From Candidatus Latescibacterota bacterium (GTDB taxonomy: Bacteria > Latescibacterota > UBA2968 > SICM01), in assembly GCA_965217865.1 (NCBI GenBank), contig CBDCJO010000002.1, positions 3,776,001 to 3,840,000 of the forward strand: a stretch of DNA of 64,000 nucleotides, written 5' to 3'. Shown here piece after piece: positions 8,521 through 28,911 of this stretch (within the stretch, counting starts at the first letter, position 1; every line of letters starts with the position of its first letter). A model generated the notes under the pieces. That model did not search any database. It was not told where the DNA came from and worked only from the letters and a program-made list of their open reading frames with translations. The position numbers were made by a program, and so were the translations under genes.

Positions 8521-8656
8521 CGCTAACGTTCAGGGGTTTCAGAAGTGGCCGTTCAAGACTTAAAGATAAGGGTTTACAGGAAAGGGCAAAAGAAAAACCC
8601 ACGGCCATTTTCGGGTGGGTGGAGGGTGAGGGGTGAACTGCAACCCAGTGTTATGT
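8521..8656 (-). repeat. attC site (136 bp)
   Basis: ACATAAC...GTTAGCG on the minus strand with complementary arms. Highly similar to the attC at 24691-24827. Confidence 0.8.
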
Positions 8657-11380: not shown

Positions 11381-11489
11381 CGTACGATTCCGGAAATGGT
11401 AAGGATACTTGTGGTGGTCAGTGAAAATTTCGAATCCGGTTGAAGGAGATGGTGAACCAAGTTGAGAACTCGAAGAAGAGGAGTTTGCC

Positions 11490-14009
11490 CTACCGAAGCA
11501 CGAAGGATGTTTGTCTGCTTACTCCGATCCCACTGTTCAGGTCCGTAACGGTCACTTGAAAGGTGTGGTCCCCCTTTTTCCCCTTCCTCAAATCCAGCGC
11601 TGTGTGGATTATCTCCTGGGTCGCCTCTCCCCCCAACTCGTAGGAGACGGTGACTTCGTCCTCTTTCTTACGGCGTCCGATCAGCCGTCCGAGGCCCGAC
11701 ATGACGAGATGACCGATACCACCCTCCGGCTTTCGCGTTGTATAATCGACCTGGTAGTGCGTCCGCCCCTGCGCGTCCCGCGTTAGGTTGTAAACCTCAA
11801 AGTAGAGGAAGACATCTTTATTCCGTTTGAAGGTAAGGGAAGGCATGGGGATCACCTCCAGCCCCTGTTTCACGAACTTACCTTCCTCTGTTGTGGGCTC
11901 AATCCTGCGGGCGATCTCGATCCCGCTCACCCTGATGCTGTCTCCACCGTAACCTTCCACGCGGAGGCTGTCTCGGATCACCTGCGTTCGTTTGGACTTC
12001 AGGTCTCTGACCTTCATTGCCATAAAATAGTCGCCAGGTGGCAGGTTGAACGCCGTTACATCCAGGAGCTCCTCATCGAACCCCGGCAGGGTTTGGAGCG
12101 GTGAACGGTCGATGGAGCGGTGAACCTCTCGCCACGTCCTGTCATACACGACCACCCACCGCTCCCCCGGCCATCCCTGCTCCGTCGGGGTGATCTCTTC
12201 GACGGGCACCTCCAGGTAGATCTCCACGCGTGAGCTGTCGCGGTCCCCCCTGAAGTCCACTGCCGCCACGTGGGACGTGAGCGGCTCTGTTAGATCCTCA
12301 GGCAAGTACAACGACCGCGCCTTTGACTTTAAAGCGCGAAAGACCTGCTCAGAAGCCTCTTCGCGCACCCTGGTTCGGAACCTCCCAAATACAGCCTCAT
12401 GAGCCTTTAATACGTCCAATGGAGTATGGACTGTGGGAATCGGGGCAAAGTCATAGTCATATCCGTTGAATTCGTCGGTGAAGACGAACTCGATCCCCCC
12501 CTTGATATAAGGGTAGATCCAGCTCTCCCACATCACAGGGGTGTTTCCCCCCGCCGGTAGGATGGTGTAGCCCGGCCCGAGGGCCGGCAACGGATAGACA
12601 GGACCACGGTACAGGTGCATGTCCTTGCCGAAATGTTTAAAACCCGGGATGAACCTATTAGCATTAGGTCTCGCAAAAGTAGTGTCGAGATTGATAGTAA
12701 GGGAATTACCACTCAGAAACTCAAGGAGGTCAGGGATATTCGTTCTCATTGCGCCGTAAATGCGGGTCGCTTGCCGCTGCCGCACGGCCTGTACCTTCCG
12801 GTCCATCGCCTTTTGGAAGTTGCCCTCCCACGACCGCTGCCGGAAGTACGGCTCCCCATAGCGAATGTAGATCTCCCCACGCCGGTCCCACGGTGTCCGT
12901 CCCTTAGAGAACTGTGTCCTGGCCACCCACACCCGCCGATAGTGCTCAAGACGCCGCCGGTTAACCCCCAATATCAGGTCTATGTCCCGCCGCGCCCAGA
13001 ACTGCCGCAGAAACTCCGGGGCATCCTCCGGCTTGATGGCACCAAAGGCCTCTATCTCCTCCTGCGACCCCACCAGCGAAATGTCATCGTAGAATGCTCG
13101 CTCATGAGGGCTGACCCGATCCAGATAGGCGCGAAACACAGCATCCGCGGGCCCCAACCGCCCCTTCTTCAGGTGGGCTTGCCCGATCAGGGGCAAGAGA
13201 CGGATCTCGTGAGGCCTCTTCTTGAGGTAAGACATTAACACGCCGATCCCGGTGTCCTCCCCACCGGAGAGAAACTTGAACTCCTCCCTTCGGACGAGGA
13301 GGTCCGGATCATCCGGATTTGCTTTCAGGCCGCGCTCACACCATTCGAGGGCCTCCTCTAGACCGCGAGGCTTCTGCTCAGCCCACTCGGAGAGGAGGAG
13401 GTAGCCCGCTGCATACTTCGGATCCGCCTTCACAAGACGCTTCAGCTCGGATCCGGCATTCCCCTCTCCCAGGCTATGCAGCACGAGGGCGAGTCGGTAG
13501 CGGGCATCGGACATCTTCGGGTCGCGGACCAGGGCCTCCCTGAACCGGTCCGGGGCCTCCCGCTTCCGGGATCGGTCTCCGGCAGCCGCGACGATCCCCA
13601 GGCCAAACCATGACGCCGCCGAATCGTCGAGGCGGCGCGCCCGATCAAACGCCTCCTCCGCCGCATCGAGCCGTCTTCCGCTCAGATAGATCGCTCCCAG
13701 GGTCCGTTGTGCGGCAGCGGCACCCTTTGCGTCACCCGATTCCAACAGCATGGCGGCCATCTCCACCAGCGAATCCAGGTTCACCGATTGAACATCAGGT
13801 GACCCTTCACTCGAGGATTCGACTCCCTGACCAAAGGACTGATTGCTCACCTTCAAAGGCGGCGTGGCATTCATCAACGAGTCGAGCTCCGCCTGTAAGG
13901 AGTCCAGAGCCACAGCTAATGAGTCCGGGGACTCAGCGCCTGCATTGGGTCCGAAGAAGGCTGACCCTGTAACGGCGAGGCTCAACGAGATGAAAAGTTG
14001 AGTGATCAT
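11490..14009 (-). CDS. GWxTD-domain TPR protein, paralog 2 (likely start MITQLF at 14009; ORF open to 14078)
   Basis: Same motifs and near-identical to paralog 1 over most of its length. Confidence 0.85.
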   Translation of the reverse strand: MITQLFISLSLAVTGSAFFGPNAGAESPDSLAVALDSLQAELDSLMNATPPLKVSNQSFGQGVESSSEGSPDVQSVNLDSLVEMAAMLLESGDAKGAAAAQRTLGAIYLSGRRLDAAEEAFDRARRLDDSAASWFGLGIVAAAGDRSRKREAPDRFREALVRDPKMSDARYRLALVLHSLGEGNAGSELKRLVKADPKYAAGYLLLSEWAEQKPRGLEEALEWCERGLKANPDDPDLLVRREEFKFLSGGEDTGIGVLMSYLKKRPHEIRLLPLIGQAHLKKGRLGPADAVFRAYLDRVSPHERAFYDDISLVGSQEEIEAFGAIKPEDAPEFLRQFWARRDIDLILGVNRRRLEHYRRVWVARTQFSKGRTPWDRRGEIYIRYGEPYFRQRSWEGNFQKAMDRKVQAVRQRQATRIYGAMRTNIPDLLEFLSGNSLTINLDTTFARPNANRFIPGFKHFGKDMHLYRGPVYPLPALGPGYTILPAGGNTPVMWESWIYPYIKGGIEFVFTDEFNGYDYDFAPIPTVHTPLDVLKAHEAVFGRFRTRVREEASEQVFRALKSKARSLYLPEDLTEPLTSHVAAVDFRGDRDSSRVEIYLEVPVEEITPTEQGWPGERWVVVYDRTWREVHRSIDRSPLQTLPGFDEELLDVTAFNLPPGDYFMAMKVRDLKSKRTQVIRDSLRVEGYGGDSIRVSGIEIARRIEPTTEEGKFVKQGLEVIPMPSLTFKRNKDVFLYFEVYNLTRDAQGRTHYQVDYTTRKPEGGIGHLVMSGLGRLIGRRKKEDEVTVSYELGGEATQEIIHTALDLRKGKKGDHTFQVTVTDLNSGIGVSRQTSFVLR

Positions 14010-14370
14010 CGTGCGGTTCCGGAAATGGTAAGGAGACTGCATATCAGACTCTCTCGCATACAAATCAAAAAGCCGCACCTAACCAGATGCGGCTTGTCAC
14101 CTTTATTCATATGCTTCATCCCCTGCGGACATCGGTTTTTTCCGAAAATAGGGAATCAGGGGCCCGGCTGGACTTGCAGGAAATGTACTGGGAGATATAT
14201 TGGATGTCAAGGAAAACAGGGAAGATGTAAAAGGAAAAGGACAATACCATACGGAATTCAGCACTGTGGACGGAAACCAGCACTGCAGAGCAAACAAAAC
14301 GCAGACATTATCCAACTATTTTCGGAAAGCGCAAAAATCTGAGCTCGTGCTCGGAAAACACTGATTCAAT

Positions 14371-15530: not shown

Positions 15531-16125
15531 TTATCGACGGGCGTCTTTCCTGACAAAGGGTTGGTTGACAATGGTTGAAGTGAGACAATGATACCTCGTG
15601 GGTTTTCTGAATGCGTTTCCCCATGTTTCGAGCTTCCTATACTCTCGCATGGCTTCCAAGTCAAAGTTGGCCAGGTACACACCCTCGCCTTCTCCTGACT
15701 TAAACCACCAGATTGTTCCTCAGATTTTTGTTCCTGAGATAAACCATCCCATCGAAAGCAACTGATTGCCCTGGCTTTCCTGGTTCCCCCACGTAGTTAG
15801 CCAATGCTACTCCAACCATGTTCTCCATGGCCCTGGACTGAAGGATTCCGGTTCTGATTTCATTCATATCGCAAGAGGTCGGTACAATTATTAACTCCGC
15901 GCCTTTTAGCATCAGGATTCGAGCGCTTTCAGGGAATTCCATGTCGTAGCAAATCATAGTCCCGATCTCTACGTCGCCTTGTCGCGTATCTAAGGTGGCG
16001 ACATAGAAATCATCGCCTGGTGAGCAGGCAGCTTCTAGCGAGAAATCACAAGTATGCACTTTCGCGTAGGTCATGACGCGATTTCCGTGGCGATCAAACA
16101 AGGTCACTGAATTACGTGGAAGATC
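15531..16125 (-). pseudogene. Carbon-nitrogen hydrolase (nitrilase family), N-terminally truncated and frameshifted
   Basis: YAKVHTC and ICYDMEFPESARILMLKGAE. The C-terminus continues in another frame (GEGVYLANFDLEAMREYR). The N-terminal catalytic Glu region is missing. Confidence 0.75.
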
Positions 16126-16198
16126 CGTGGATGGCAGATCCTATGGCTCAATCCTTTAGAGGCGAGGGACGCGCAGCTTTTCTTCTGGCCGGTACTTA

Positions 16199-16335
16199 AT
16201 CTAACGTTCTCCGGATGGCCGAAGTGGCCGTGCATCAGAAAAGGAATCAGTACTTTTACAATCAGCCAACGAATCAGTCACGGCCATTTTGGCTGGGGTG
16301 TGCTTAGGTTGGGTCTCGGCCATCCCGTGTTAGGC
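16199..16335 (-). repeat. attC site (137 bp)
   Basis: GCCTAAC...GTTAGAT with arms GGATGGCCGA/TCGGCCATCC. Shares the inner AAGTGGCCGT...ACGGCCATTT stem with the attCs at 8521 and 24691. Confidence 0.8.
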
Positions 16336-16470
16336 GTTGCGGCAGTTTTTTGATCGGTAAAGGAATAAAGAGGCGGCCATCACCTTCTTTGACTTTTCAA
16401 GGCTTTTTTCGGTCTTTTACATACAGAGAACAATTACGTTAAACAATGGGTGCCTATGGATACGGTATGG

Positions 16471-16932
16471 CTATGGTGCGGACCAGGCAACTTTACCCTC
16501 TTGGTCAAGGATGGTTAAGGTTGGCAACCTGTCGGCTCTAAGTGTTATTCGCCTCTGGTAATTCTTATCTCTAAGCTCCAGAATCGGATCTTCATCACCT
16601 CCTAGCCCAAACCAGGCCCGATTTTGACCGATCGTGTCCCCAAAAACAATGCTCGGTGGGTCAACTTGAATCGAGATTCCACCAACCTTATTACTTTTGT
16701 CGAATAAAATCAGGTGTGGCTTTCCATTCGACGATAGACCAAGCCGTGCACGCCGCACGCCGTTCTTATCTATAAGATGAAACCCTTCTGCCTCGATGAC
16801 CTTAGCTATTTCTGATGATTGCTTCTGGGCAAACACTGGACCGCTTACTAACACCCAGCTCGTCACCGACCCGCCTACTAGCCCAGCGACTACAGCCAGC
16901 ATCGTTAACAACCAGTAATCTTTGTGGCTCAT
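16471..16932 (-). CDS. Hypothetical exported protein (cassette gene)
   Basis: N-terminal TM/signal, repeated beta motifs (LIDKNGVRRARLG), AAGGAG RBS, attC downstream. Confidence 0.7.
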   Translation of the reverse strand: MSHKDYWLLTMLAVVAGLVGGSVTSWVLVSGPVFAQKQSSEIAKVIEAEGFHLIDKNGVRRARLGLSSNGKPHLILFDKSNKVGGISIQVDPPSIVFGDTIGQNRAWFGLGGDEDPILELRDKNYQRRITLRADRLPTLTILDQEGKVAWSAP

Positions 16933-17048
16933 GTCTGTCTCTCCTTATACACTCGATAGGGATATACAGCAGCCATGCAGTGTTATAGGATGTGCCAGCC
17001 AGCGGTGGTGGGAAGCGATCTTATGCGACCATAATAACGATACCATTC

Positions 17049-18254
17049 TTAGAGAGGGTACTCATCTTCATGAAACGAGAATTCGATTGGTTGTGTAAAA
17101 TAGCTTAACTCCTCTTTCATCCTCTCCATTTTCTTCTGGTCTTCCACAGTCCATTCAGGCCTGTGGATGTACATCACGTCAAACGAGAAGCCTCGTCCAA
17201 GTTCATACTCTTCAGTGGCCAACCCGACGACAGTACTCCGATCTCTATTCAGACCGCGTGCTACAATACACCTGTTCCCGAGTTCTGCCACTCTGTACTG
17301 GCGGTCGGTGCCGTGAGGTGTTGCGAGGAATACATAGATGACTCCTGAAGGACTCTCCAACATTCTGGAACGGACCTTCTTTCTCTTAGACATCTCAACG
17401 AAATCGTTGAACGCCCTCCCTAGAAGGCGTCGAGAGAAGCGAGTTTCGAGTGCCATAGTACGGAGAGCCATCTCGGAGTCGTTAAGGGATGATCCAAATT
17501 CAAGATCTCCAGATAGAACGTCTTCACCTACTGTTTCGATTATGCGATCCCAGATATAGCTGTCATAGTCCGCAAGTTTCTTCGCCCTGTATTCATCCTT
17601 GCTTGAGAACTGGCTCCAAACGCCATCTACAACCGCAATTGTATCAACGTCCTCAGGGAACGTCCTGCCTCTATGAAGGTAAAAAGCAAGTAAGTCTTCT
17701 TCTGCACCGTAGAACTCCGTACGAATGCCAGATTCGTATAGAGCCTCCTTCGCCGAAAGGTACGAAACAAAATCAGTGATCGTGTCCAGTTCACTCATAA
17801 TGACTGAAAGCGAGATCTCATCGAACACGTGAACGAATCCTTTTCCAAAATCCCCAAACTGGACGGGCGCTTTTCCTTTGCTACCAAATGCAACGGCAAT
17901 TCGATGTACTCGACGCTTCTCCAGCTTAGGGTAGAGCAAACCTGGTGTGCCGTCTCTCCGAGTTACCTCTCTGGACATATCGATCCATCTTTGAGCTCCG
18001 TAGATCTGCTTTACCGATGCCTCAATTGCTCGTCTTCTCCAGCGGAGGAGGTCGGTTGATGGTCGGCCAGTATCAGGTACATCAACCGCCTTTACACTGA
18101 AGATTATGATGTCAGGATCACACACAACAAGAATGTCGCATAGCTCCTTGCTTGCATCCTTGCCTCTTGGATTCGCATAGCTCCACAACGATAAGAAGGA
18201 CCGGCGACACAGTTCTTCGACATAAGCTTCTGTCTGATTTACAGGTTTGCTCAT
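17049..18254 (-). CDS. NERD-like nuclease-related domain protein (cassette gene)
   Basis: SFLSLWSYANP..KELCDILVVCDPDIIIFSVK motif. Bounded by GTTATAG (18306) and CTATAAC (16982-16988). Confidence 0.6.
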   Translation of the reverse strand: MSKPVNQTEAYVEELCRRSFLSLWSYANPRGKDASKELCDILVVCDPDIIIFSVKAVDVPDTGRPSTDLLRWRRRAIEASVKQIYGAQRWIDMSREVTRRDGTPGLLYPKLEKRRVHRIAVAFGSKGKAPVQFGDFGKGFVHVFDEISLSVIMSELDTITDFVSYLSAKEALYESGIRTEFYGAEEDLLAFYLHRGRTFPEDVDTIAVVDGVWSQFSSKDEYRAKKLADYDSYIWDRIIETVGEDVLSGDLEFGSSLNDSEMALRTMALETRFSRRLLGRAFNDFVEMSKRKKVRSRMLESPSGVIYVFLATPHGTDRQYRVAELGNRCIVARGLNRDRSTVVGLATEEYELGRGFSFDVMYIHRPEWTVEDQKKMERMKEELSYFTQPIEFSFHEDEYPL

Positions 18255-18299
18255 CTTTCGATTGTTCTATCCGAGACTGTGGCGGATGGCTGGCATTTC

Positions 18300-18377
18300 C
18301 TATAACGTTTAAGAGTGGCCGAACCTGCGCAGCAGGTTTCTCCGGAGCGAAGCGGAGGCGGCCACTCGGTATTGGGT
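18300..18377 (-). repeat. attC site (R'' core AAC mutated to AAT)
   Basis: ACCCAAT...GTTATAG with arms GAGTGGCCG/CGGCCACTC. Confidence 0.7.
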
Positions 18378-18436
18378 GCTGTGCCAGCTTGGCGTAATAA
18401 CTCCTATTACAATATTATTTAAATGGGATAGGTGCT

Positions 18437-18799
18437 TTAGGGGATGGGTAATTCGGTTGTCATATAATTCCGCGAGTCAACCAAGGCATCGCCCCGCAAA
18501 TGCACAATCCCCTGGTATTCTTCGCTCTCAACAATATCGATGAGGGCGTCGCGGGAGGGGTACATGACAATGAGCACTTCGTCCCACTCGTCCGAGCCTA
18601 TCAGCGTACCCAGACCGCGCGAGCGGAAGACGATCCGGCCTCCACGCTTCTCGACCAGCGGTCTGGCGACTTCGATATAGTGCTCGTACATGGCCTCACC
18701 GTCCTCGGTAAACCGAAGCAGGTTGAGCATCCAAATCGGACCCGTATGGTCATGCTCGCGGAATGCCTGGAACTGATCTTTAGTAGGACGAATGGCCAT
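18437..18799 (-). CDS. DUF1330 family protein (cassette gene)
   Basis: GPIWMLNLLRF, GGRIVF, WDEVLIVMYPSR, EEYQ...R..AL. RBS AGGAGG. Confidence 0.85.
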   Translation of the reverse strand: MAIRPTKDQFQAFREHDHTGPIWMLNLLRFTEDGEAMYEHYIEVARPLVEKRGGRIVFRSRGLGTLIGSDEWDEVLIVMYPSRDALIDIVESEEYQGIVHLRGDALVDSRNYMTTELPIP

Positions 18800-18919
18800 T
18801 TACAATTCCTCCTGTTTAAAAGTACCCACCCATAGAAGAAAACAATAGGATCAGCGCTATACCGCAATCATAGCCTCTGCACAATCAAGCTGTGTTTTCC
18901 CGATCTGCCAAGGCATGGC

Positions 18920-18989
18920 GCCCAACGTTTCCAGCACTCCCGAACCCCGAAGGGGTTTTGCGGAGGCCCGACGGAGCAGCTGGTTCTGC
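18920..18989 (-). repeat. attC site (70 bp)
   Basis: GCAGAAC...GTTGGGC immediately after the stop codon at 18994, with arms CCAGCTGCTCC/GGAGTGCTGG. Confidence 0.75.
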
Positions 18990-18993
18990 GACT

Positions 18994-19392
18994 TCACTTC
19001 CTCTTTGTGATGAATCCTGTTGTGCCCTCCGGCATGTCCTTGCGCAATTCGGCAATCTCTTCCTCGGCAAGCTGCTGGGGATCGTCCACAGGAAGTTGGG
19101 CCACACGCCTAATCCTCAAGTCGCGCTGTGTCTGCCAGTGCGTTTGCTCAGTGTTGCGAAGGTAAGAAACGTCGTCCGGGCAGAGGGTGTCCGACACCAC
19201 GTACAGGAACCCGATCAGTTGCCCGTTGTGCTTGACGGCCTGGCAAACGCCACCCGTAGACATGAGCGACGGCCTATGGGAAAAGCCTTTGGCCATCTCC
19301 TTGAACTGAGTGACCCAACTTCCTTTCCGAAGCACCGTCAGCTTCTCTGGTGATCCATGATACCAAGGTGCACTGTAATCGCAGTTCTCCAC
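18994..19392 (-). CDS. Hypothetical cassette protein with an ADP-ribosyltransferase-like YHGS motif
   Basis: N-terminal WYHGSP..L..LRKG and GFLYVV resemble Arr/ART-type small proteins. Assignment tentative. Confidence 0.45.
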   Translation of the reverse strand: MENCDYSAPWYHGSPEKLTVLRKGSWVTQFKEMAKGFSHRPSLMSTGGVCQAVKHNGQLIGFLYVVSDTLCPDDVSYLRNTEQTHWQTQRDLRIRRVAQLPVDDPQQLAEEEIAELRKDMPEGTTGFITKRK

Positions 19393-19418
19393 ACCGCGCC
19401 TTTTACCTTTCCGTAGAG

Positions 19419-20051
19419 CTAGGGAAAAAGTGGAGTTATACCAAGATGAAGAGCCAAACTCTCCCTTGTCTTAATCAGACGCACGCTTTCGAAACCCGCA
19501 TCGGAAAGTGCTCTTCCTTGTTCTTCAGCAGTAAGGTAAAGATCCTTCTTCTGATCGGGCATCAGTTCGGGTGTGTGATCACAAAGCAAGACTATCCCGC
19601 CCGGTCTTACAATTGATCTAAGTAAGGCCACCACAGAGGGGATTCGAGTCTTATGTCTGACTTCATGAATGGCCTGCATGGACACCACGGCATCATGCAG
19701 TCCGATGCCATCTGTCCAATCTGGTTTCGAGATGTCTCGGATTAGGAATTGAAGCTGATTTTCATGTTCTAGAAGTCGCTCTCTCGATATGAAGTGCATC
19801 GCTTCCGAGATGTCTATGAGTGTGTAGGATTCTGGCCTGCAAGTTCGGATTATTTCATCGGCGAGAAAACCTGGTCCGGACCCAACTTCGACAATCCGAG
19901 CTCCCTCTCCGACCTCGACGAGGATTCTGGAAGCGAACTCAAGCCAGAACTCAGAGCGCCAAGGCCGTTTCCGGTTTGCATCTTCAGCCCAACGGCGTGC
20001 CTGCTCAAGATCTTGAAAGTCGATTGAACTTGGAATTGAGTATGTAGTCAC
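19419..20051 (-). CDS. Class I SAM-dependent methyltransferase (cassette gene)
   Basis: VEVGSGPG, IDIS, DAVVSMQAIHE, RPGG motifs. Confidence 0.85.
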   Translation of the reverse strand: MTTYSIPSSIDFQDLEQARRWAEDANRKRPWRSEFWLEFASRILVEVGEGARIVEVGSGPGFLADEIIRTCRPESYTLIDISEAMHFISRERLLEHENQLQFLIRDISKPDWTDGIGLHDAVVSMQAIHEVRHKTRIPSVVALLRSIVRPGGIVLLCDHTPELMPDQKKDLYLTAEEQGRALSDAGFESVRLIKTRESLALHLGITPLFP

Positions 20052-20098
20052 ACGCTATATCCAACTCGATCGAAGGTTTTTCCCCTGGGGGCATATTG

Positions 20099-20176
20099 CA
20101 TAACGGTCTTGAGCCCGCGAAACCGCCCGGTTTCCCAGGCGAGCCGTGGGCACGGTGTCGCTTACGGCCGTTAAAC
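20099..20176 (-). repeat. attC site
   Basis: GTTTAAC...GACCGTTATGC, with weaker internal complementarity than the other sites. Confidence 0.6.
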
Positions 20177-20308
20177 ACGAAGCATTCTTCCGCTTGTGTA
20201 GCGCGCAGTCTAAGTATTGACAAATTCTGATTTACCAATTTGATCAAAATCGATATCCGACAATTCCCGGACATCTTCATACAGAATTACCATTCGGGAT
20301 ATCCCCCT

Positions 20309-22061
20309 TAAAGGCTTGGCGCAACAAAAAGCTCCTATCGGCAATATCTCAGAAGCTCGCGAGCCGCAGGCTTGTAATATTTGTTGACGATCTTGATAGA
20401 ACCCGCCCCGATTTAGTCCCTGACTTGCTTCTCAACTTGCGAGAAGCCCTAGATTTGCCCAACCTCTACTATGTTATTGCTCTTTCTCCAGAGGTCGTAG
20501 AAGAAGGTCTTAAGAGGGTTCATCCTGGTTGGGATGAACCCATCAAATTCCTCGAAAAAATCATCGAGTACCCAGCCTATTTACCTTCCCCAAGCCAGGA
20601 TGATATTCAAAGGTTTGTCAGACATCACGCAGAGTCCGTTTCCGATCACCTCGATTTACAAGCGATTGACGATATCATTGGGTTTCTTCCCCGTAACCCC
20701 AGGAAAGACAAGCTCTTTCTTAGATTCCTCGCCAGCTTAAGCGGACAATTTAAGCGCTTTAGCAATGATGAAATTTCTTTTAGAAAACTGTACTTGTGCC
20801 AATTGCTCCGTTTAGAATTTCCTAATGAGACTCGAGGAATAAGTGGTAATACTGAAGCTCTTGAAAACCTTCAAAACTTTTGTTTAAGACGTACATTCTC
20901 CAGTGATCGTAAGGAGAAAGAGGAAGGTCTTCCAATAAATCCTGAGTTCTTGCCAGAAGAAACTGAAAGCCAGCATCGATTCATAGAAATCTGCACGGCT
21001 ATCGGTGAATTCTCGTTCTGGCATTCAGAATATACACTGCCTGAAATGTTCAATATAGTTGAACGTCCACCTTTGTTGACTTGGAGAGAGTTTCTAAACT
21101 TCTTTGATCAGGTTAAACAGGCCGAATCAGACAAAAGGGCTGGGATAATAGAGGATCGACTAAAGAATGTCGAATCTAGGAAGTATATGTTGACAAATGC
21201 CTTATTCTCAAAGACTATTAAATTACGAGATAATATCCATAACAAAGCTCTTGATTCAGATACAGAAAATGAAATTATCGAAGCGTTAGAGGGTGTTAAG
21301 GAAGTAGATGAATTCCTTCGAATCCTAGTTGAGGATCTAGCAGTTCTGAAAAAGGGGATGATTTCAGCGGATACCTGGACCGAGTTATACAACCACCTAT
21401 ATGACGCATCAAGATTTTCAGAACCTAAGGAAACATACCAATGGCTTCGGAACTGCGAATTCAGTGTGCTCAGGAACTCAATAGAGGGAATATCTTCAGA
21501 GCTCAAGGAGGAGATTCTCAACACGAGGTTCAAGGTAGATAAGCCCACACCAGCCTTGCGTTGCTCCGAAGAATTCCAGCAAATGACAAGAGAGATAATC
21601 GCGGATTTCAGCCAAGTTATCTCTGAGGCTATAATTGAAAGATTCAGCCAACCGGACGGGCTTGAGTCTTTTGGGGTCAAAAAGGTTCGGCAATTAGGAA
21701 AGATTTCGCATTCTCTCCAGATTCTCATTTCCATAGGTCTGAGAATAGAAACCGTCTCTATGAAGTTGCCGGACAAGCACATACGAATGATGTGATTCAG
21801 AAAAACTTCCTTACTTATCTTCGAATGCTGATCCTTGGTGCGACTGAAGGAGGAACATCCTTTCCAATTGGTGCCTGCCAGCGATTGATCAGAGACAAGG
21901 AATTTGTCCGTGCTATTTGGACCTCTGCACTCTCACAACCTCTGAATCTTCGTATAATGGGTTCTCTGCGCCAAAATAGACACGGATACTCAACCGAGGA
22001 CCTACCTGTTCCGGATTGGTGGCATGAATTGGAGAGGGACGTTTTTTCTCAAACTGATTAA
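20309..22061 (+). pseudogene. KAP-family P-loop NTPase, C-terminal part (displaced and inverted; one homopolymer frameshift near 21670)
   Basis: Reads KAWRNKKLL...LVIFVDDLDRTRPD (KAP Walker B), FLEKIIEYP and NPRK. Lacks Walker A, which lies at 24191-24614 on the other strand. Confidence 0.85.
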
Positions 22062-22135
22062 CCCAATGTGAGCCCTTATTCAGAGCTGCCTTACCCGTGG
22101 CAAAGCCGCACCCAACACCCGGGGCAGGCACTTCA

Positions 22136-22220
22136 TATAACACGGCGTGTGCGAGCTTCGGGGCATACGCTCCTTCTCCAAACCTGCGTATGCAGGTTCG
22201 CACACGCCTGACCGTTACAC
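22136..22220 (+). repeat. attC site in + orientation (belongs to the inverted KAP cassette)
   Basis: ATATAAC...GACCGTTACAC with arms GGCGTGTGCGA/TCGCACACGCC. Confidence 0.8.
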
Positions 22221-22293
22221 GCAACACCGGTTAATTTCTGAAAGCCTATGGGTAATATATTAGCAGAATCTTTACCTCTCTTTCCTGCATGCC

Positions 22294-22335
22294 GCATAAC
22301 GTTTTCGTGCTCCTGCACCGAGTAAGCGGTTGGGC
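22294..22335 (-). repeat. Short or degenerate attC-like site (42 bp)
   Basis: GCCCAAC...AAACGTTATGC. Shorter than canonical attC sites, probably internally deleted. Confidence 0.45.
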
Positions 22336-22428
22336 GCAGGCCCGAATGCGCCGTAGCCAAGGGCACGGTGTTATGGGATGTGCCCGATCTGGTTTGGTAA
22401 TCGTGCCACCTCACCCACCAGACAGGCT

Positions 22429-22658
22429 CTAATCGGACTCAAGAAATGGACAGTGATATGGAATGGTGAGAAAGTCAGCCAATTCCATCTCATTTAGATC
22501 GACAGGATCACCCTTGTCCAAACGTTTCGTGATCTGAGATCCACTGATATTGAACGCGTCCACAAACTTCGGCGTCGTACCGTCGAACAGGACGTTTTCC
22601 GGATTCCAATCTATGCCGGAGAAGTAGGGAAGATTTTCAGCCTGCTGCAGACCTTCCC
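22429..22658 (-). pseudogene. 3' fragment of a cassette gene truncated by IS
   Basis: Open frame REGLQQAENLPYFSGIDWNPENVLFDG...FLESD* starting at the IS boundary. Confidence 0.5.
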
Positions 22659-22660
22659 TA

Positions 22661-24188
22661 GCAGCCTGTTGAAAAAGTGCGTTTATGCCAAGATGACTGT
22701 TGTCTTTCCTTGTGGTTTGGTCCTATGATATATCAGGTTCAAACTGAGAAGGGAGGACGAGCAAATGGCAATGGGAAAACGAGGCCGACAGAGACAGGAA
22801 AACCTGTTCATCGCATCGAACACTTTGGTGAAATCTCCGGGTCATCCGTTCTACGAGAAGCTGAATCAGGTATTGGGGGCGAACGGCTTCGACGAGTTCG
22901 TCGAGGGGCTTTGCCAGCGGTATTACGCTCCTCATATGGGTCGCAAGGGCATTCCGCCCGGGGTTTATTTTCGGATGCTTTTGATTGGGTATTTCGAGGG
23001 ACTTGATTCGGAACGTGGGATCGAATGGCGTGTATCTGACTCGCTGACGTTGCGCCGGTTTTTGGGGTATGCCCTTGACGAACAGACCCCGGATCATTCC
23101 AGCCTGTCTCGCATCCGGCATCGGCTTCCCTTGGAAGTTCACGAAGCGGTTTTCAAGTGGATCCTGAGGGTCTTGTGCAAAGCGGGTCTGGTGAAGGGGA
23201 AGACGTTGGGCGTGGATGCTACGACACTGGAGGCCAACGCCGCGATGCGCAGCATTGTACGCCGTGACACGGGTGAAGGCTACCAGGCATTCCTTGAGAA
23301 TCTGGCCAAGGCCTCGGGCATTGAAACGCCTACCCGCGAGGACTTGTCCAAGATCGATAAGAAGCGACCGAAGAAGGGATCGAACCAGGACTGGGAGCAC
23401 CCGCACGACCCGGATGCCAAGATCGCTAAGATGAAGGACGGTCGCACGCACATGGCGCACAAGGTGGAGCACGCGGTGGATCTGGACACCAATGCCATTG
23501 TGGCAGTGGCGTTGTCGGGAGCAGATGAAGGAGATACCGAGTCGTTGCCCTGGACGCTGCTCGAGGCGCAGCTCAATCTCAAGCAGGTCGCGAAGGACGA
23601 AAAAGCTGCCAAACGTTTGCACAGACAGCGTATACGGGAGGTGGTTGCGGACAAAGGATATCATAGCAACGATGTATTGACCAGTCTGAAGCAAGGCGGC
23701 ATCCGGAGTTACATTTCAGAACCGGATCGGGGACGCCGCAAGTGGAACGGCCGACGAGATGAGCAGGCCGCGGTATATGCGAATCGACGCCGGATCAAGG
23801 GAGATCGCGGCAAGGCCTTGCGCCGAAGTCGTGCAGAACGGGTGGAAAGAACCATCGCTCACACATATGATACCGGTGGCATGCGCAGGTTGCACTTGAG
23901 AGACCGCGGCAATATCCTCAAGCGTTTGCTGATCCACATCGGGGGCTGCAACCTGGCTCTGCTCATGCGCAAAGTGATGGGCGTAGGTACTCCGAAGGCC
24001 CTCCAGGACCTGGCCAAGGCCTTGCAGCGTCTACTGCTCGTCCTACAATCACGTTTGCTGCCCTCGGTCACCTTTTTAACCTCTTATCAGCGTCTCCTGC
24101 TCAATCTCCTTACCTTGATTTATCTGACCCGCACTCCAGGCGTCTTTTCCGTCTATGTGCGTTGAAAGGTAGTTCTTCAACGGGCTGC
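22661..24188 (+). mobile_element. IS5/IS1182-like insertion sequence, copy 1 (1,528 bp)
   Basis: TIRs GCAGCCTGTTGAAAAAGT / GCAGCCCGTTGAAGAACT, flanked by TA (CTAG context). Near-identical to copies 2 and 3. Confidence 0.93.
22765..24165 (+). CDS. DDE transposase (DUF772 + DDE_Tnp_1-like)
   Basis: TPDHSSLSRIR, VDATTLEANA, DPDAK, VADKGY, RVER motifs. Confidence 0.93.
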   Translation: MAMGKRGRQRQENLFIASNTLVKSPGHPFYEKLNQVLGANGFDEFVEGLCQRYYAPHMGRKGIPPGVYFRMLLIGYFEGLDSERGIEWRVSDSLTLRRFLGYALDEQTPDHSSLSRIRHRLPLEVHEAVFKWILRVLCKAGLVKGKTLGVDATTLEANAAMRSIVRRDTGEGYQAFLENLAKASGIETPTREDLSKIDKKRPKKGSNQDWEHPHDPDAKIAKMKDGRTHMAHKVEHAVDLDTNAIVAVALSGADEGDTESLPWTLLEAQLNLKQVAKDEKAAKRLHRQRIREVVADKGYHSNDVLTSLKQGGIRSYISEPDRGRRKWNGRRDEQAAVYANRRRIKGDRGKALRRSRAERVERTIAHTYDTGGMRRLHLRDRGNILKRLLIHIGGCNLALLMRKVMGVGTPKALQDLAKALQRLLLVLQSRLLPSVTFLTSYQRLLLNLLTLIYLTRTPGVFSVYVR

Positions 24189-24190
24189 TA

Positions 24191-24614
24191 GGCGCCCTGT
24201 AGCACCTGCCGTTACCTTATCCATTAGTTTCTCTGTTGCCCTCAATTTCCAATCAAGATCCGAAATACTTTTCCATGTATCAGAGACAAGCGTGGTTGCT
24301 GTGTCCCCAAGTCTCGCTAAGAATCTCTTGGAAATATTCAATTCTTCCGCTATAGACTCCAAGAGTTTTTCTAATATCTCTTGTTCAGTTTTTGCGGTCC
24401 AAGGCACAAAAAGCAAGGAGTAGTGTCCTGCTTTTCGCAGATCCTTTTCCATCATTTTGAGAACGGATGTCTTACCTTCCCCCCAATTTCCGTATAGACC
24501 CAACCTGAAGGATGAATTAATTGGGGAATTGATTGTTAAACTTGCTAGACCACTGGCAAATTGAGAGCGGTTAAGATGATCATCAGAAGTAGGTTCATCG
24601 GTAATCAGGTTCAA
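24191..24614 (-). pseudogene. KAP-family P-loop NTPase, N-terminal part truncated by IS
   Basis: DEPTSDDHLNRSQFA and Walker A GLYGNWGEGKTS. The frame runs into the IS end at ...TGRL. Confidence 0.88.
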
Positions 24615-24690
24615 ACATCACCTCTATGCTACTTGTGAAAAAGTGACAACGTCAGGACGGCGCCACCGTGGGGTTTTGGGTTGGTATTTC

Positions 24691-24827
24691 ATATAACGGT
24701 CTGGGTTGCAGAAGTGGCCGTGTCAGACCAAAAGATAAGGGTTTGAAGGATACGGGAAAAGAAAAACCCACGGCCATTTTTAGGGTGGGTGGAAGTTGAG
24801 GGGGGGAACTGCAACCCGGTGTTATAG
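24691..24827 (-). repeat. attC site (137 bp)
   Basis: CTATAAC...GACCGTTATAT with arms GGGTTGCAG/CTGCAACCC. Confidence 0.85.
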
Positions 24828-24862
24828 GAAGTGCCAGGCTGGGGTGGTTGGGCGAGGGCTTG

Positions 24863-25725
24863 CTAGGACGGCAAGCCCGCATCCTTGAAAAAGGCAGCAA
24901 CATCCGATTGCATTTGGGTCGTGAAGCTGTGGCCAGTTTTTTCGTAGAGGTTGAATGTCGCGTTTGCTCCTGACCCCATAAAAGCTTTCCGCACATTCCA
25001 AAATCGTTCAACGAGTTGCTCATTTGATCCAAAGAGACGGTACACGGCATCTCGATCCTGCTCGTCATATCCATCGTCGAAGGCAACAGGGTCATTAGTA
25101 TCATCTGCTCCAAGAGTGAAAAGATGAGGGACGCAATTGTAACTGTCTCTGCAGAAGGGTCTGCCGCTCAAACGGCCTAGATCAGTGTGCCAATTGGGTA
25201 TCGGAGGGGTTCGCCTTTCCACTCCTCTACCGGAACCATGTGTCCTCCGCAGCTTCCAGCCACGACTGCCGTCACTCGTTCGGGATGCAGAATAGCAAAG
25301 CGATTCGCGAATTGCCCAGCAGCAGAGAAGCCGAAGACCATGAATCTATCAGCTTCTGACATTTCAAGTCGTCTCGCATACGCAACCATCGACAGCAACT
25401 GTAGATCCAGCCGTACCAATTGGCTGTCGAAATTGGAGGCTGTGAGCATAGTGGCCCGATTGAGCGAGTGCGTGTAGTGTTGACAATATTTCTGAGCGCT
25501 CCATCTTGGAAAGATCGGCACGAGAACGGTCACGTCGGGCATCAACTCAGAAATAGCACCTATTTGACACCGAGCCTTTTCGACGTGTGGTGCCAAGTCT
25601 TCCGTCCCAATGCCCGTGTTATTCGGGGCGACCAAGAGCTTGCTTGGATCACCTGAGCGAACGAGGAAGGGCCAGAAGAACCCACTCTCTTGATTTGGCT
25701 CAATAAATTGAATGGTGCAAGCCAT
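24863..25725 (-). CDS. Alpha/beta hydrolase (cassette gene), frameshift near 25190
   Basis: Nucleophile-elbow GFSAAGQFANRF, RYPIG, late GADD and GH motifs across two overlapping ORFs. Confidence 0.7.
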
Positions 25726-25744
25726 CTGCTTTTTAGCGGCGCTA

Positions 25745-27272
25745 GCAGCCCGTTGAAGAACTACCTTTCAACGCACATAAACGGAAAAGACGCCTGGAGT
25801 GCGGGTCGGATAAATCAAGGTAAGGAGATTGAGCAGGAGACGCTGATAAGAGGTTAAAAAGGTGACCGAGGGCAGCAAACGTGATTGTAGGACGAGCAGT
25901 AGACGCTGCAAGGCCTTGGCCAGGTCCTGGAGGGCCTTCGGAGTACCTACGCCCATCACTTTGCGCATGAGCAGAGCCAGGTTGCAGCCCCCGATGTGGA
26001 TCAGCAAACGCTTGAGGATATTGCCGCGGTCTCTCAAGTGCAACCTGCGCATGCCACCGGTATCATATGTGTGAGCGATGGTTCTTTCCACCCGTTCTGC
26101 ACGACTTCGGCGCAAGGCCTTGCCGCGATCTCCCTTGATCCGGCGTCGATTCGCATATACCGCGGCCTGCTCATCTCGTCGGCCGTTCCACTTGCGGCGT
26201 CCCCGATCCGGTTCTGAAATGTAACTCCGGATGCCGCCTTGCTTCAGACTGGTCAATACATCGTTGCTATGATATCCTTTGTCCGCAACCACCTCCCGTA
26301 TACGCTGTCTGTGCAAACGTTTGGCAGCTTTTTCGTCCTTCGCGACCTGCTTGAGATTGAGCTGCGCCTCGAGCAGCGTCCAGGGCAACGACTCGGTATC
26401 TCCTTCATCTGCTCCCGACAACGCCACTGCCACAATGGCATTGGTGTCCAGATCCACCGCGTGCTCCACCTTGTGCGCCATGTGCGTGCGACCGTCCTTC
26501 ATCTTAGCGATCTTGGCATCCGGGTCGTGCGGGTGCTCCCAGTCCTGGTTCGATCCCTTCTTCGGTCGCTTCTTATCGATCTTGGACAAGTCCTCGCGGG
26601 TAGGCGTTTCAATGCCCGAGGCCTTGGCCAGATTCTCAAGGAATGCCTGGTAGCCTTCACCCGTGTCACGGCGTACAATGCTGCGCATCGCGGCGTTGGC
26701 CTCCAGTGTCGTAGCATCCACGCCCAACGTCTTCCCCTTCACCAGACCCGCTTTGCACAAGACCCTCAGGATCCACTTGAAAACCGCTTCGTGAACTTCC
26801 AAGGGAAGCCGATGCCGGATGCGAGACAGGCTGGAATGATCCGGGGTCTGTTCGTCAAGGGCATACCCCAAAAACCGGCGCAACGTCAGCGAGTCAGATA
26901 CACGCCATTCGATCCCACGTTCCGAATCAAGTCCCTCGAAATACCCAATCAAAAGCATCCGAAAATAAACCCCGGGCGGAATGCCCTTGCGACCCATATG
27001 AGGAGCGTAATACCGCTGGCAAAGCCCCTCGACGAACTCGTCGAAGCCGTTCGCCCCCAATACCTGATTCAGCTTCTCGTAGAACGGATGACCCGGAGAT
27101 TTCACCAAAGTGTTCGATGCGATGAACAGGTTTTCCTGTCTCTGTCGGCCTCGTTTTCCCATTGCCATTTGCTCGTCCTCCCTTCTCAGTTTGAACCTGA
27201 TATATCATAGGACCAAACCACAAGGAAAGACAACAGTCATCTTGGCATAAACGCACTTTTTCAACAGGCTGC
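25745..27272 (-). mobile_element. IS5/IS1182-like insertion sequence, copy 2 (1,528 bp)
   Basis: Same TIRs, inverted orientation, TA/CTAG at both ends. Confidence 0.93.
25768..27168 (-). CDS. DDE transposase
   Basis: Identical to 22765-24165 except L>P near the C-terminus. Confidence 0.93.
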   Translation of the reverse strand: MAMGKRGRQRQENLFIASNTLVKSPGHPFYEKLNQVLGANGFDEFVEGLCQRYYAPHMGRKGIPPGVYFRMLLIGYFEGLDSERGIEWRVSDSLTLRRFLGYALDEQTPDHSSLSRIRHRLPLEVHEAVFKWILRVLCKAGLVKGKTLGVDATTLEANAAMRSIVRRDTGEGYQAFLENLAKASGIETPTREDLSKIDKKRPKKGSNQDWEHPHDPDAKIAKMKDGRTHMAHKVEHAVDLDTNAIVAVALSGADEGDTESLPWTLLEAQLNLKQVAKDEKAAKRLHRQRIREVVADKGYHSNDVLTSLKQGGIRSYISEPDRGRRKWNGRRDEQAAVYANRRRIKGDRGKALRRSRAERVERTIAHTYDTGGMRRLHLRDRGNILKRLLIHIGGCNLALLMRKVMGVGTPKALQDLAKALQRLLLVLQSRLLPSVTFLTSYQRLLLNLLTLIYPTRTPGVFSVYVR

Positions 27273-27564
27273 TAGGGCGCCGCTACCTCTTTTGGGTTAA
27301 GGCTGGCATTTCCCTATAACTTACGGTATCCACGAACCCATACGAATTCAATCATTCGGCATATCTCCCGCCCTTCGCAGATACCTCCCCACGAAGAAAT
27401 AGCCGATATTTGTTCGTAGATGCCTTGCTATAGGAGAAGTCGTTTTTAGGATGAACTCACCTTTGACAATTACATCATACTATCCAGAGGACTCTGAATC
27501 TTTCAGATAGTCGTGATACTCGCCTTCTTGATAGGTTCTTTATCTCGCTACCGAATCCATACTC

Positions 27565-28911
27565 CTAAAACCTCAGCGCAAATACGGTTTTAAAATTAGT
27601 CTTCGATTGAACGCTGATCGTACCCTTGTGTAGCCTCATAACCTGTCGTGAAAAACTTAAGCCGATGCCGGAGCCTTCCGGCTTGGTCGTAAAGAAAGGG
27701 ATAAAGATCTTTTCCTGTACTTCCTCCAGGATCCCCGGTCCGTTGTCGCTTACCTGAATAAAACATCTTCCTCGATCGTCCATTCTGGAAGTCAATTCAA
27801 CTCGAGGATCAGTTTGGTACTGCACAGCCTCTATGGCGTTTAGGAGAAGATTAATCACAACCTGTTCGATCAACTCGGAATCGGCTGTCAGTTCAAGACT
27901 TTTCGGATCTATATTCATCTGAAAACCGATGCCTTTGTTGTCCATCTCCCCCTGCATGAGCTGGCCGATCCGTTCAAAGAGTTCTACAACGGGTATGATT
28001 TGGAATTCCGGCTTCGGAATTCGCGTAAGTTTGCGATAGGTGTCCACAAAATGGAGCAAGCCCTGGCTTCGTTTCTGAATCGTTTTGACCGCATCACGCA
28101 CGTCGCTAATCGATTCATCAGTCGTTGTTCTTGAGCTTTGACCATCCGATAGCAGGTCTTTTGCCGTCGAAGCGAGGGAGGCAATGGGTGTCACAGAATT
28201 CATGATTTCGTGTGTGAGGACACGAATCAGATTTTGCCAGGCCTCCATCTCCTTTTCCTCTAATTCGCTCTGGATGTTTTGTATCGATATCAGGACTAAA
28301 ATCTGTTCGCGAAGCTTGAACTCGGTCGCATAGATCACCAGCTGCATTATTTCATCGTTATTTTGGACTCTGATGCTTCTCCTTTCACCCGGCTTCATGT
28401 GAAACAAGGTTTCCACCAGAGGCATGCTGAAACGCTCTAAGGATTTTATGTTGGACAAAGGATATGTAACCTTCAACAGGCGGCGGGCAGCCGTGTTCAT
28501 GAGCTCAATTTCCCCATTCCGCTGAAACGAAATTAGCCCGATTCCAACGTGTTGAACCACGGTCTGCAAGTAGCGATAGTGTTCTTCTTTTTCCGCCCGT
28601 GCACGACGAAAGTCGTCGAGCACCCTGTTAAACGAAGATTTCAAAGCATCGAAGGAAGAGCCCAATCCAGCGCCGGTAAATGTTTGCGAAAAGTCGGAAT
28701 GTTGAATGGATTCTAAGAATCGGGCAAGGTCTCGATTGGTCCTGTCAACATAATGAATAAGCGCATAGATCTGGTAGCAGGTGATGACGCCAACCACCAG
28801 AACCGTCGCATAATATGTCGTGTGGATCAGGAGGTAGATAAAGAGATATATCGTCGCTCCGAGTAGCAACACACGAGTTATGCAGTGTAAGCGAAATCGT
28901 TTATAAACCAT
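27565..28911 (-). CDS. Sensor histidine kinase (NtrY/NtrB-like)
   Basis: Two TM helices, PAS-like region, LTHEIMNS H-box, NLLLNAIEA, DNGPG, PFFTTK, GIGL. Confidence 0.92.
   Translation of the reverse strand: MVYKRFRLHCITRVLLLGATIYLFIYLLIHTTYYATVLVVGVITCYQIYALIHYVDRTNRDLARFLESIQHSDFSQTFTGAGLGSSFDALKSSFNRVLDDFRRARAEKEEHYRYLQTVVQHVGIGLISFQRNGEIELMNTAARRLLKVTYPLSNIKSLERFSMPLVETLFHMKPGERRSIRVQNNDEIMQLVIYATEFKLREQILVLISIQNIQSELEEKEMEAWQNLIRVLTHEIMNSVTPIASLASTAKDLLSDGQSSRTTTDESISDVRDAVKTIQKRSQGLLHFVDTYRKLTRIPKPEFQIIPVVELFERIGQLMQGEMDNKGIGFQMNIDPKSLELTADSELIEQVVINLLLNAIEAVQYQTDPRVELTSRMDDRGRCFIQVSDNGPGILEEVQEKIFIPFFTTKPEGSGIGLSFSRQVMRLHKGTISVQSKTNFKTVFALRF

Follow-up and report, generated by a model that had tools for sequence, protein, structure and literature searches.

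The question raised by this locus was which enzyme had assembled the array of short genes found at 16.2–27.3 kb of a 64,000-nt stretch of DNA (hereafter, the window) from a Candidatus Latescibacterota bacterium (assembly GCA_965217865.1, contig CBDCJO010000002.1, referred to as C2), and whether this array belonged to a classical integron. The genes were located mostly on the − strand and were parted by imperfect AAC...GTT inverted repeats. A preliminary description, made from the sequence alone, had interpreted the region as an integrase-less integron cassette array (CALIN) with defence-like cargo. Based on the computational analysis, it was concluded that the cassette array was genuine but decaying. 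The reading considered probable as a whole was that of a decayed array with its own attI and a ten-codon integrase stub, likely built by a tyrosine recombinase without the I2 insertion of the integron integrase IntI, which would act through a folded bottom strand bearing marks different from the classical ones. The part of this reading that attributed the array to the I2-less family was, taken alone, held with high confidence.

Traces of the probable origin of the array were found at its right end. There, the 3' stub of an I2-less tyrosine recombinase gene (27470–27502, −), comprising the last 10 codons and the stop with the rest gone, was followed by an attI-like insertion platform (27317–27469, −). 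Nine of the ten residues encoded by the stub (codons 27473–27502) were identical to residues 359–368 of P0001, an intact protein from another assembly that was 99% identical to the frameshifted integrase of locus L001, and the stub DNA resembled the end of the L001 integrase gene. The 200 bp to the right of the array had nine more copies in the genome, 81–86% identical, plus partial matches. The ten attI copies were located on C2 at 1657019, 1789439, 1982755, 1990097, 2034718, 3496376, 3803320, 4235055, 4801588 and 4999632. When aligned, they were alike through GTT and continued thereafter into different cassette starts; hence, the platform was assigned as an attI, whose crossover was inferred to fall between 27320 and 27319 (G|TT). 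Coding remnants of the I2-less gene preceded seven of the ten copies, one of which (L001) was full length but frameshifted. In both the L001 layout and the window stub, the integrase, attI and the cassettes followed each other on one strand, with the integrase pointing toward the cassettes.

Some further observations were made on these platforms. The integrase remnants at the ten loci were of very different lengths, and two had a common internal deletion of the catalytic part. No shared junction motif that could explain the spread of attI was seen among the ten copies. For a Pc promoter that would drive the first cassettes, a sigma-70-type consensus, which may not be that of the host, gave no match in 27280–27620. 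The folding of attI as a hairpin was considered and is not claimed, since the predicted folds of the 10 copies were weak and did not agree with each other (−1.1 to −8.7 kcal/mol). In two other loci (L022 and L024), a putative attI located 50–130 nt past the integrase stop contained a ~10-bp inverted repeat 5–6 nt before GTTA, and this repeat resembled the right arm of the attC-like sites.

A search of the genome (96% complete) with the IntI profile TIGR02249 returned 12 matches, none of them over the cut-off, and the best two were the two frames of L001. P0001 reached 220 bits against the cut-off of 265, and all seven family members tested were below it. The alignment of P0001 with IntI4 (2a3v) consisted of two blocks separated by 21 residues, as compared to 63 in IntI4 (42 fewer), and the I2 insertion was present in none of 25 aligned homologues. 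Judged from these alignments, the integrase family is without the IntI I2 insertion. The SAM_4 domain was found in P0001, with an NF040815 score near its cut-off, and 2a3v was the best match of this protein both by PDB sequence and by Foldseek with the predicted model (pLDDT 85). The distance from the conserved F to H in the catalytic domain was 35 residues; the three Xer-like enzymes encoded by the genome had 33–34, and one IntI had 44. In a tree of 22 sequences and 278 columns that contained this single IntI (the enzyme of locus L118 was left out), the family grouped with IntI and apart from the three Xer-like enzymes (support 0.999). The position of IntI among the I2-less proteins was unsettled (support 0.41–0.59), and no order of events is claimed. 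The N-terminal domain of the family was predicted to be HARP-like. P0001 scored 15.9 bits with HARP (PF07443; cut-off 25), 10 of the 25 homologues matched at E ≤ 0.1 (best 0.005), and residues 11–81 of the P0001 model aligned with the N-terminus of T4 UvsW, itself a HARP domain (PMC4666394), with Z 7.8 and a root-mean-square deviation (rmsd) of 1.8 over 62 residues. The N-terminal domain alone gave no useful PDB sequence match. Relatives 49% identical to the catalytic part, annotated as TnpF in one record, were also observed on many plasmids, in Acinetobacter and others.

The frameshift in L001 was considered as a possible assembly error and this was rejected. The contigs of all four sequencing runs (from two studies, possibly including the source sample) bridged the frameshift without gaps, so that it was regarded as genuine in those samples.

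The attC-like sites were examined by a covariance model (R1) trained on 14 sites from outside the window, four from another array of the same genome and ten from two relatives; its structure was drawn by hand and its E-values are rough. Five of the seven sites named in the preliminary description were matched (E 9e-12 to 6e-5), namely 22129–22226 (E 8.6e-12), 22288–22382 (1.7e-11), 18294–18383 (5.2e-9) and, more weakly, 24685–24833 (1.3e-5) and 16193–16341 (6e-5). A strict hairpin scan (TAAC, a short spacer, stem...stem, a longer spacer and GTTA, one bulge being allowed) found 47 sites on C2 versus 6, 11 and 15 in three shuffles, and three of its sites were within the array (16199, 22135 and 24691). 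Intact sites of the long type were located at 24691–24827 (−) and, as the last in the array, at 16199–16335 (−), both recognized by the strict scan, the stem fit and R1. The site at 22294–22376 (−), recognized by eye, by the stem fit and by R1, was also intact, and that at 18300–18377 (−), found by the same means, had a single change in the R'' box (AAC to AAT). The site at 22135–22220 was in the inverted orientation (+, R1 on the opposite strand) and represented the end of the KAP cassette itself; among seven ends tested, it was the best match to the start that follows site 24691 (13 of 17 positions). Two sites recognized by eye, at 20098–20165 (−, R'' box lost) and 18920–18990 (−, left arm decayed), kept the right arm and the GTT box and were not matched by R1. 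Finally, 16982–17001 (−) was a half site, the R'' side of the NERD-like cassette with the remaining attC deleted, which matched its own cassette start at 15 of 17 positions.

Hence, of at least seven sites and a half site proposed earlier, five were recovered by R1 and the half site was retained, whereas 18920 and 20099 were degenerate and missed by the model. The genes, described as co-oriented, were not: site 22135 and ~600 C-terminal codons of the KAP gene are on the + strand and the other parts of the array on the − strand. The statement that the window has no tyrosine recombinase holds for a whole one, but the last 10 codons of such a gene are present at 27473–27502. A lack of extrahelical bases on the bottom strand had been named as evidence against the sites, and in part this was observed, as an unbroken stem fitted better in all five intact sites of the array. 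Outside the array, a lone degenerate long-type attC-like site, ~80% like site 24691, was observed at 8521–8656 (−), ~200 bp past the second of two paralogous TPR-repeat genes (8873–11380 and 11490–14078), which we take to be of the GWxTD type.

The general pattern of the sites was TAAC, 1–3 nt, an unbroken 9–10-bp stem, a variable centre from about 50 to 180 nt, the stem, 4–6 nt and GTTA, the spacer being non-complementary. Such sites were compared with those of true integrons in a matched set, in which two genomes with both enzymes gave 12 IntI-side sites and seven loci gave 42 I2-less-side sites, located beside the I2-less genes or their attI. A base was bulged at position 16 in 12 of 12 IntI-side sites and in 0 of 42 I2-less-side sites; 40 of the latter preferred the unbroken stem and two tied. 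Position 11 after GTT was A in all 42 I2-less-side sites versus 3 of 12 on the IntI side, and the position facing it, read on the other strand, was G in 33 of 42 versus 2 of 12. The position-11 A was also recorded in nine of ten attI-adjacent cassette starts, which were chosen without the hairpin scan, and the bottom-strand G after AAC was found in 42 of 42 I2-less-side sites. R1 matched six of six sites of an I2-less array (L023) and none of the 12 IntI-side sites; with the filters off, the six L023 sites were weaker (E 0.008–0.99), and one chance-level match in L117 was not an attC. This matched control from two-enzyme genomes indicates that the site marks track the enzyme type. On the IntI side, locus L118 (G042:C1:2432500-2452400) had long (183–187 nt) and homogeneous sites; their spacer was 2/6, the base bulged on the bottom strand was C, and the IntI of the locus appeared to be co-oriented with its array.

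Further, the ends of individual cassettes were analyzed. The first ~15 nt of a cassette paired with its own last ~15 nt, never at position 11, where the invariant A was opposite C on the top strand. In a test of n = 30, one row of which was an overlapping double call, cognate ends paired at 8.4 of 12 positions and non-cognate ends at 4.9, with 0 of 20,000 permutations reaching this difference. Position 11 and the position adjacent to the R box formed A·C mismatches on the top strand and T·G wobbles on the bottom strand, and in the rebuilt hairpins of the circular forms the bottom strand folded more stably in 26 of 29. Compensatory changes were found in eight of eight pairs of the inner stem, a result tilted toward structure because the alignment was chosen for stems. 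A joint of 17008 to 18288, with 22 letters on the short side, was tried as a trace of excision and most likely stems from another cassette whose ends are nearly identical.

It was proposed that the I2-less recombinase would act much like an integron integrase in joining attI to the folded bottom strand of the cassette end by recombination, while reading other marks. The bottom strand would serve as the substrate, because only there do the position-11 mismatch and the GTT-adjacent pair become T·G wobbles. These wobbles, together with the lopsided spacer, would replace the extrahelical bases that are read by I2 in classical integrons and would set the strand choice. A contribution of the spacer is plausible, since classical sites deprived of their extrahelical bases can still receive polarity from the spacer alone (PMC2727003). 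The HARP-like domain might, as a conjecture, bind the hairpin or a branch junction, and the exchange of one strand is assumed, by analogy, to be resolved by replication.

The association of the enzyme with such sites was assessed at 79 GTDB loci. On the strand of the gene, 30 sites of the same geometry were found downstream (381 kb) versus 0 upstream (406 kb), when on the other strand two were downstream and two upstream. The 30 sites came from 13 loci, and 19 of them from three. Arrays of 4–9 sites were located behind intact genes in Gemmatimonadota (L023), Ignavibacteriota (L029), Bacteroidota (L049 and L057) and a class relative (G028, L101), and six sites followed a gene that was only partly matched in another class relative (G039, L102). 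On plasmid NZ_CP012644 of the soil bacterium Rufibacter tibetensis, four unbulged sites were likewise located downstream of an intact member of the family. The same integrase-attI-cassette layout recurs across several phyla. No IntI over the cut-off was found in three of the five other array-bearing genomes. In the L029 array (9143–12315), one 205-nt cassette, too short for a usual gene, was observed three times.

In the source genome, R1 detected at least 61 sites in 38 clusters when 150 of 2566 candidates were scored. As 47 of the 61 had no attI copy within 15 kb, many of them being alone, the distribution suggests many solo cassettes at secondary sites. The best-preserved array of the genome (L110, G000:C2:4223252-4235055) had at least eight intact sites downstream of attI.

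Several observations weigh against the reading as a whole. Only 13 of the 79 loci had any downstream site, and six of nine class-relative loci had none on the strand of the gene, one having three opposite-strand sites 8–10 kb off; many family members may thus head no arrays. The loci without sites could also be explained by short contigs and a scan tuned to the source genome. The contrast of the marks was not made of independent cases, because the 12 control sites came from two genomes, 10 of them from one homogeneous array, and the 42 sites were picked by our own scan. Two further candidate marks were rejected: the 2/6 spacer occurs in the IntI-side L118 sites as well, and the extended end pairing reaches about position 12 beside the same IntI. 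Since both occur beside a true IntI, neither spacer asymmetry nor extended pairing is diagnostic alone, and only the position-8 and position-11 marks differ in the end pairing of an I2-less and an IntI array. By VIA-align, archaeal Xer structures (4a8e and 5hxy on top, Z 22.8) ranked above IntI4 (Z 18.0). The HARP scores were below the Pfam cut-off, and the Z of 7.8 is in the range that the tool rates as common. No excised circles were seen in public runs, of which the assembled contigs were searched. Moreover, a true IntI was encoded by two of the five array-bearing genomes.

The last point would fit a classical CALIN, in which an ordinary IntI, lost or acting from elsewhere, assembled the cassettes and the I2-less recombinase was a bystander. 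Integrons have the same core GTT/AAC boxes and the same crossover as inferred here, an IntI gene could be missing from a genome that is 96% complete, and a VCR site that lacks extrahelical bases is still recombined by IntI1, strand choice being partly lost (PMC2727003). Such an origin is nevertheless quite unlikely, given that IntI over the cut-off was absent here and in the three genomes mentioned above, that the I2-less gene runs at its 3' end straight into attI and has coding remnants beside seven of ten copies of it, and that neighbouring sites differ cleanly where both enzymes coexist. If the I2-less enzyme itself built the arrays, it could have done so by double-stranded (or cruciform) recombination with two strand exchanges, in the manner of Xer or Cre. 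The Xer-like length of the catalytic domain (35 residues from F to H) agrees with such a route, as does the lack of an I2 to stop the second exchange, and positions 8 and 11 could owe their conserved letters to sequence contacts. We considered this route unlikely: the inner arms vary yet stay paired (compensatory in eight of eight pairs), the spacer is non-complementary around a centre of about 50 to 180 nt, and marks that pair on one strand only favour a folded single strand. That the hairpins were intergenic repeats among foreign genes (repetitive extragenic palindromic (REP)-like elements, terminators or miniature transposons) and not recombination sites would account for the 47 of 61 R1 sites lying far from attI, many alone. 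It is scarcely credible, however, as the own ends of each gene unit pair better than non-cognate ends, the same GTT closes all ten attI copies before different cassette starts, and the sites are concentrated behind the recombinase gene on the strand that encodes it.

The system read in this way, with an I2-less recombinase as the builder of the array, resembles integrons in many respects. Its tyrosine recombinase carries SAM_4 and is best matched by Vibrio cholerae IntI4/VchIntIA (2a3v), a single attI with a GTT crossover is located beside the integrase gene, and the short, promoterless-looking genes have imperfect AAC...GTT hairpin ends. The start of a cassette is complementary to its own end, and the bottom-strand G after AAC, present in 42 of 42 sites, is conserved in attC (PMC2727003). 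Unlike in integrons, the family lacks I2 and has an extra N-terminal domain that is predicted to be HARP-like. The sites are without the extrahelical base 16, and outside the R box they carry a conserved G at position 8 and, at position 11, an A/G wobble mark. Thus, the I2-less system is integron-like without two features by which integrons are recognized, I2 and the extrahelical base 16. The array also conforms to a CALIN as described by Cury et al. 2016 (PMC4889954), having at least two attC-like sites (five by R1), no intact integrase nearby and insertion sequence (IS) insertions; the loss of the integrase is one proposed origin of CALINs (PMC4889954). It differs in that attI is retained along with the stub of an integrase whose family has no IntI-specific region, and its sites are non-classical. 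The earlier designation fits operationally, since the cassettes form an integron-style array with no working integrase next to it, but the CALIN is one of a non-classical, apparently undescribed integron variant.

As in the Treponema-type 'inverted' integrons (Wu et al. 2013, PMC3607928) and the archaeal integrons (10.1101/2022.02.06.479319), the integrase is co-oriented with the cassettes and attI directly follows the stop. The archaeal integrases have the IntI-specific domain (Ghaly et al., 10.1101/2022.02.06.479319), which the I2-less family does not. The Treponema integrases are grouped by Cury et al. (PMC4889954) with the proteins matching the IntI-specific profile, and on this description they would differ from the I2-less family as well. 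The likeness to XerC/XerD and archaeal XerA consists in the same length of the catalytic domain and in 4a8e and 5hxy as the top VIA-align matches, whereas the Xer-like enzymes of the genome branch apart and the context of the family is a cassette array. Smyshlyaev et al. 2021 (PMC8138268) describe an 'integron-like' subgroup of tyrosine recombinases in which conservation of the insertion is incomplete, and they call it essential for integron function; in the parts of that article available to us, no I2-less member was tied to attI or cassette arrays, and HARP was unmentioned. No description of I2-less cassette arrays was found in the literature at the level of titles and abstract openings.

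I2 is held to let integron integrases handle the single-stranded attC, and detection tools require it (PMC7790495, PMC4889954); Escudero et al. (PMC7790495) regard I2 as necessary for cassette capture and intermediates as lacking. An I2-less family heading arrays would mean that this reaction has been solved in two ways; it would also offer a testable intermediate for the origin of IntI and imply that integron surveys undercount whole phyla. The present array is likely to be of an overlooked, second kind of integron, because its recombinase family is without the segment thought essential for integrons and goes with hairpins that are marked differently. In a broader form, a second widespread class of integrons would have recombinases that never acquired or lost I2 and that rely on T·G wobbles and on a HARP domain, binding junctions, to recombine folded single-stranded cassette ends; it would maintain a separate cassette pool even within one genome, and attI would multiply while the enzyme decays. 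We find the arguments for and against this broader form evenly balanced. If true, it would provide a missing link between Xer recombinases and IntI, and many CALINs in lineages said to lack integrons would be explained. As a CALIN with defence cargo, the array is ordinary and mostly decayed.

The decay was evident from two copies of a 1536-bp IS inside the array, inverted relative to each other and presumably of the IS1182 family. One copy (25742–27277, −; DDE transposase, DUF772) was inserted 43 nt into cassette 1, and the other (22656–24191, +) was located at a breakpoint of the KAP gene. Both were flanked by CTAG, one inside a GC-rich hairpin. The genome contained 90 near-full-length copies, nearly all more than 99% identical, and the expansion of this IS is recent. 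The N-terminal ~142 codons of the KAP NTPase (24189–24614, −; PF07693, E 7.9e-13) were cut by the IS and matched the N-terminus of seven of seven full-length homologues, when the C-terminal part (about residues 141–740 of the homologues) was found inverted at 20308–22061 (+). In these homologues of 722–747 aa, the first 100–145 residues aligned to 24608–24189 (−), ending at or before the IS, and the remainder to 20308–22064 (+) with a frameshift near 21669. KAP homologues of 799–2280 aa were searched for and none was found (the family is of ~730 aa). The KAP gene was thus cut, and a piece of it was inverted and displaced along with the attC of this cassette, which requires at least two events. 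One contig of a short-read run (X2, which may be the source sample) spanned 18552–22650 without any difference. The array in this strain is probably frozen, because the single near-full-length enzyme gene carries a frameshift and the IS insertions, the inversion and point changes erode the cassettes.

Five cargo proteins were intact. These were an S-adenosylmethionine (SAM)-dependent methyltransferase (19419–20051, −; PF13649, E 1.3e-10), a 132-aa protein of an unnamed family (18994–19392, −), a DUF1330 protein (18437–18799, −; PF07045, E 2.5e-9), a 401-aa NERD-like protein (17049–18254, −) and a 153-aa protein with a hydrophobic N-terminus and no family (16471–16932, −). The NERD-like protein was from a large and conserved family, with 2708 homologues at E ≤ 1e-20, and had a predicted N-terminal PD-(D/E)xK nuclease fold. 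Its model aligned with N.BspD6I by VIA-align with Z 9.3 and rmsd 4.2 over 166 residues, residues beyond ~190 being barely covered, and gave no Foldseek match at E ≤ 0.001. The 132-aa protein scored 0.95–0.97 to unnamed atlas clusters and 0.83 to the ADP-ribosyltransferase Arr-ms, a likeness taken as a lead only, and had no Pfam, PHROG or PDB-sequence match. The gene of cassette 1 (24863–25725, −) consisted of two overlapping frames with weak Pfam matches to alpha/beta-hydrolases (E 0.009 and 0.04) and is probably frameshifted. A 3' fragment of a cassette gene (22429–22659, −; 76 codons) had no Pfam match at E ≤ 1 and no PHROG match.

Among the labels given earlier, the nitrilase remnant, DUF1330, the methyltransferase and KAP were confirmed by Pfam, KAP as fragments. 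The hydrolase label agreed with weak matches, and the NERD-like label with a domain match below the cut-off in four of four homologues, besides the predicted nuclease fold. For the ADP-ribosyltransferase label the atlas lead was found and no Pfam match, and no SIR2-like protein was detected, the piece presumably meant being the 76-codon fragment. PADLOC (2023 library) matched three of ten proteins, the two KAP fragments and a generic methyltransferase domain, and seven gave none; the broken KAP fragments touched the PifA, QatA and PDC-S20 models. Of the four kinds of cassettes proposed as anti-phage candidates, the NERD-like one is intact, KAP is split, inverted and frameshifted, the ART-like one has the atlas lead, and a SIR2-like one was not detected. 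That cassettes often carry defence genes has been published (10.1101/2024.07.02.601686), and the words NERD, KAP and ADP-ribosyl are absent from the main text of that study. For this array, the sequences suggest a defence cargo weakly, with the predicted nuclease of 401 aa as the only intact reasonable candidate.

At the left end, the 3' half of a frameshifted nitrilase-family gene (15545–16107, −; PF00795 positions 96–210) may be flanking DNA rather than a cassette, because the letters after site 16199 lacked the marks of a cassette start. Public runs were also observed to contain a more abundant relative of this nitrilase fragment (15531–16119), about 91–92% identical and diverging beyond 16119.

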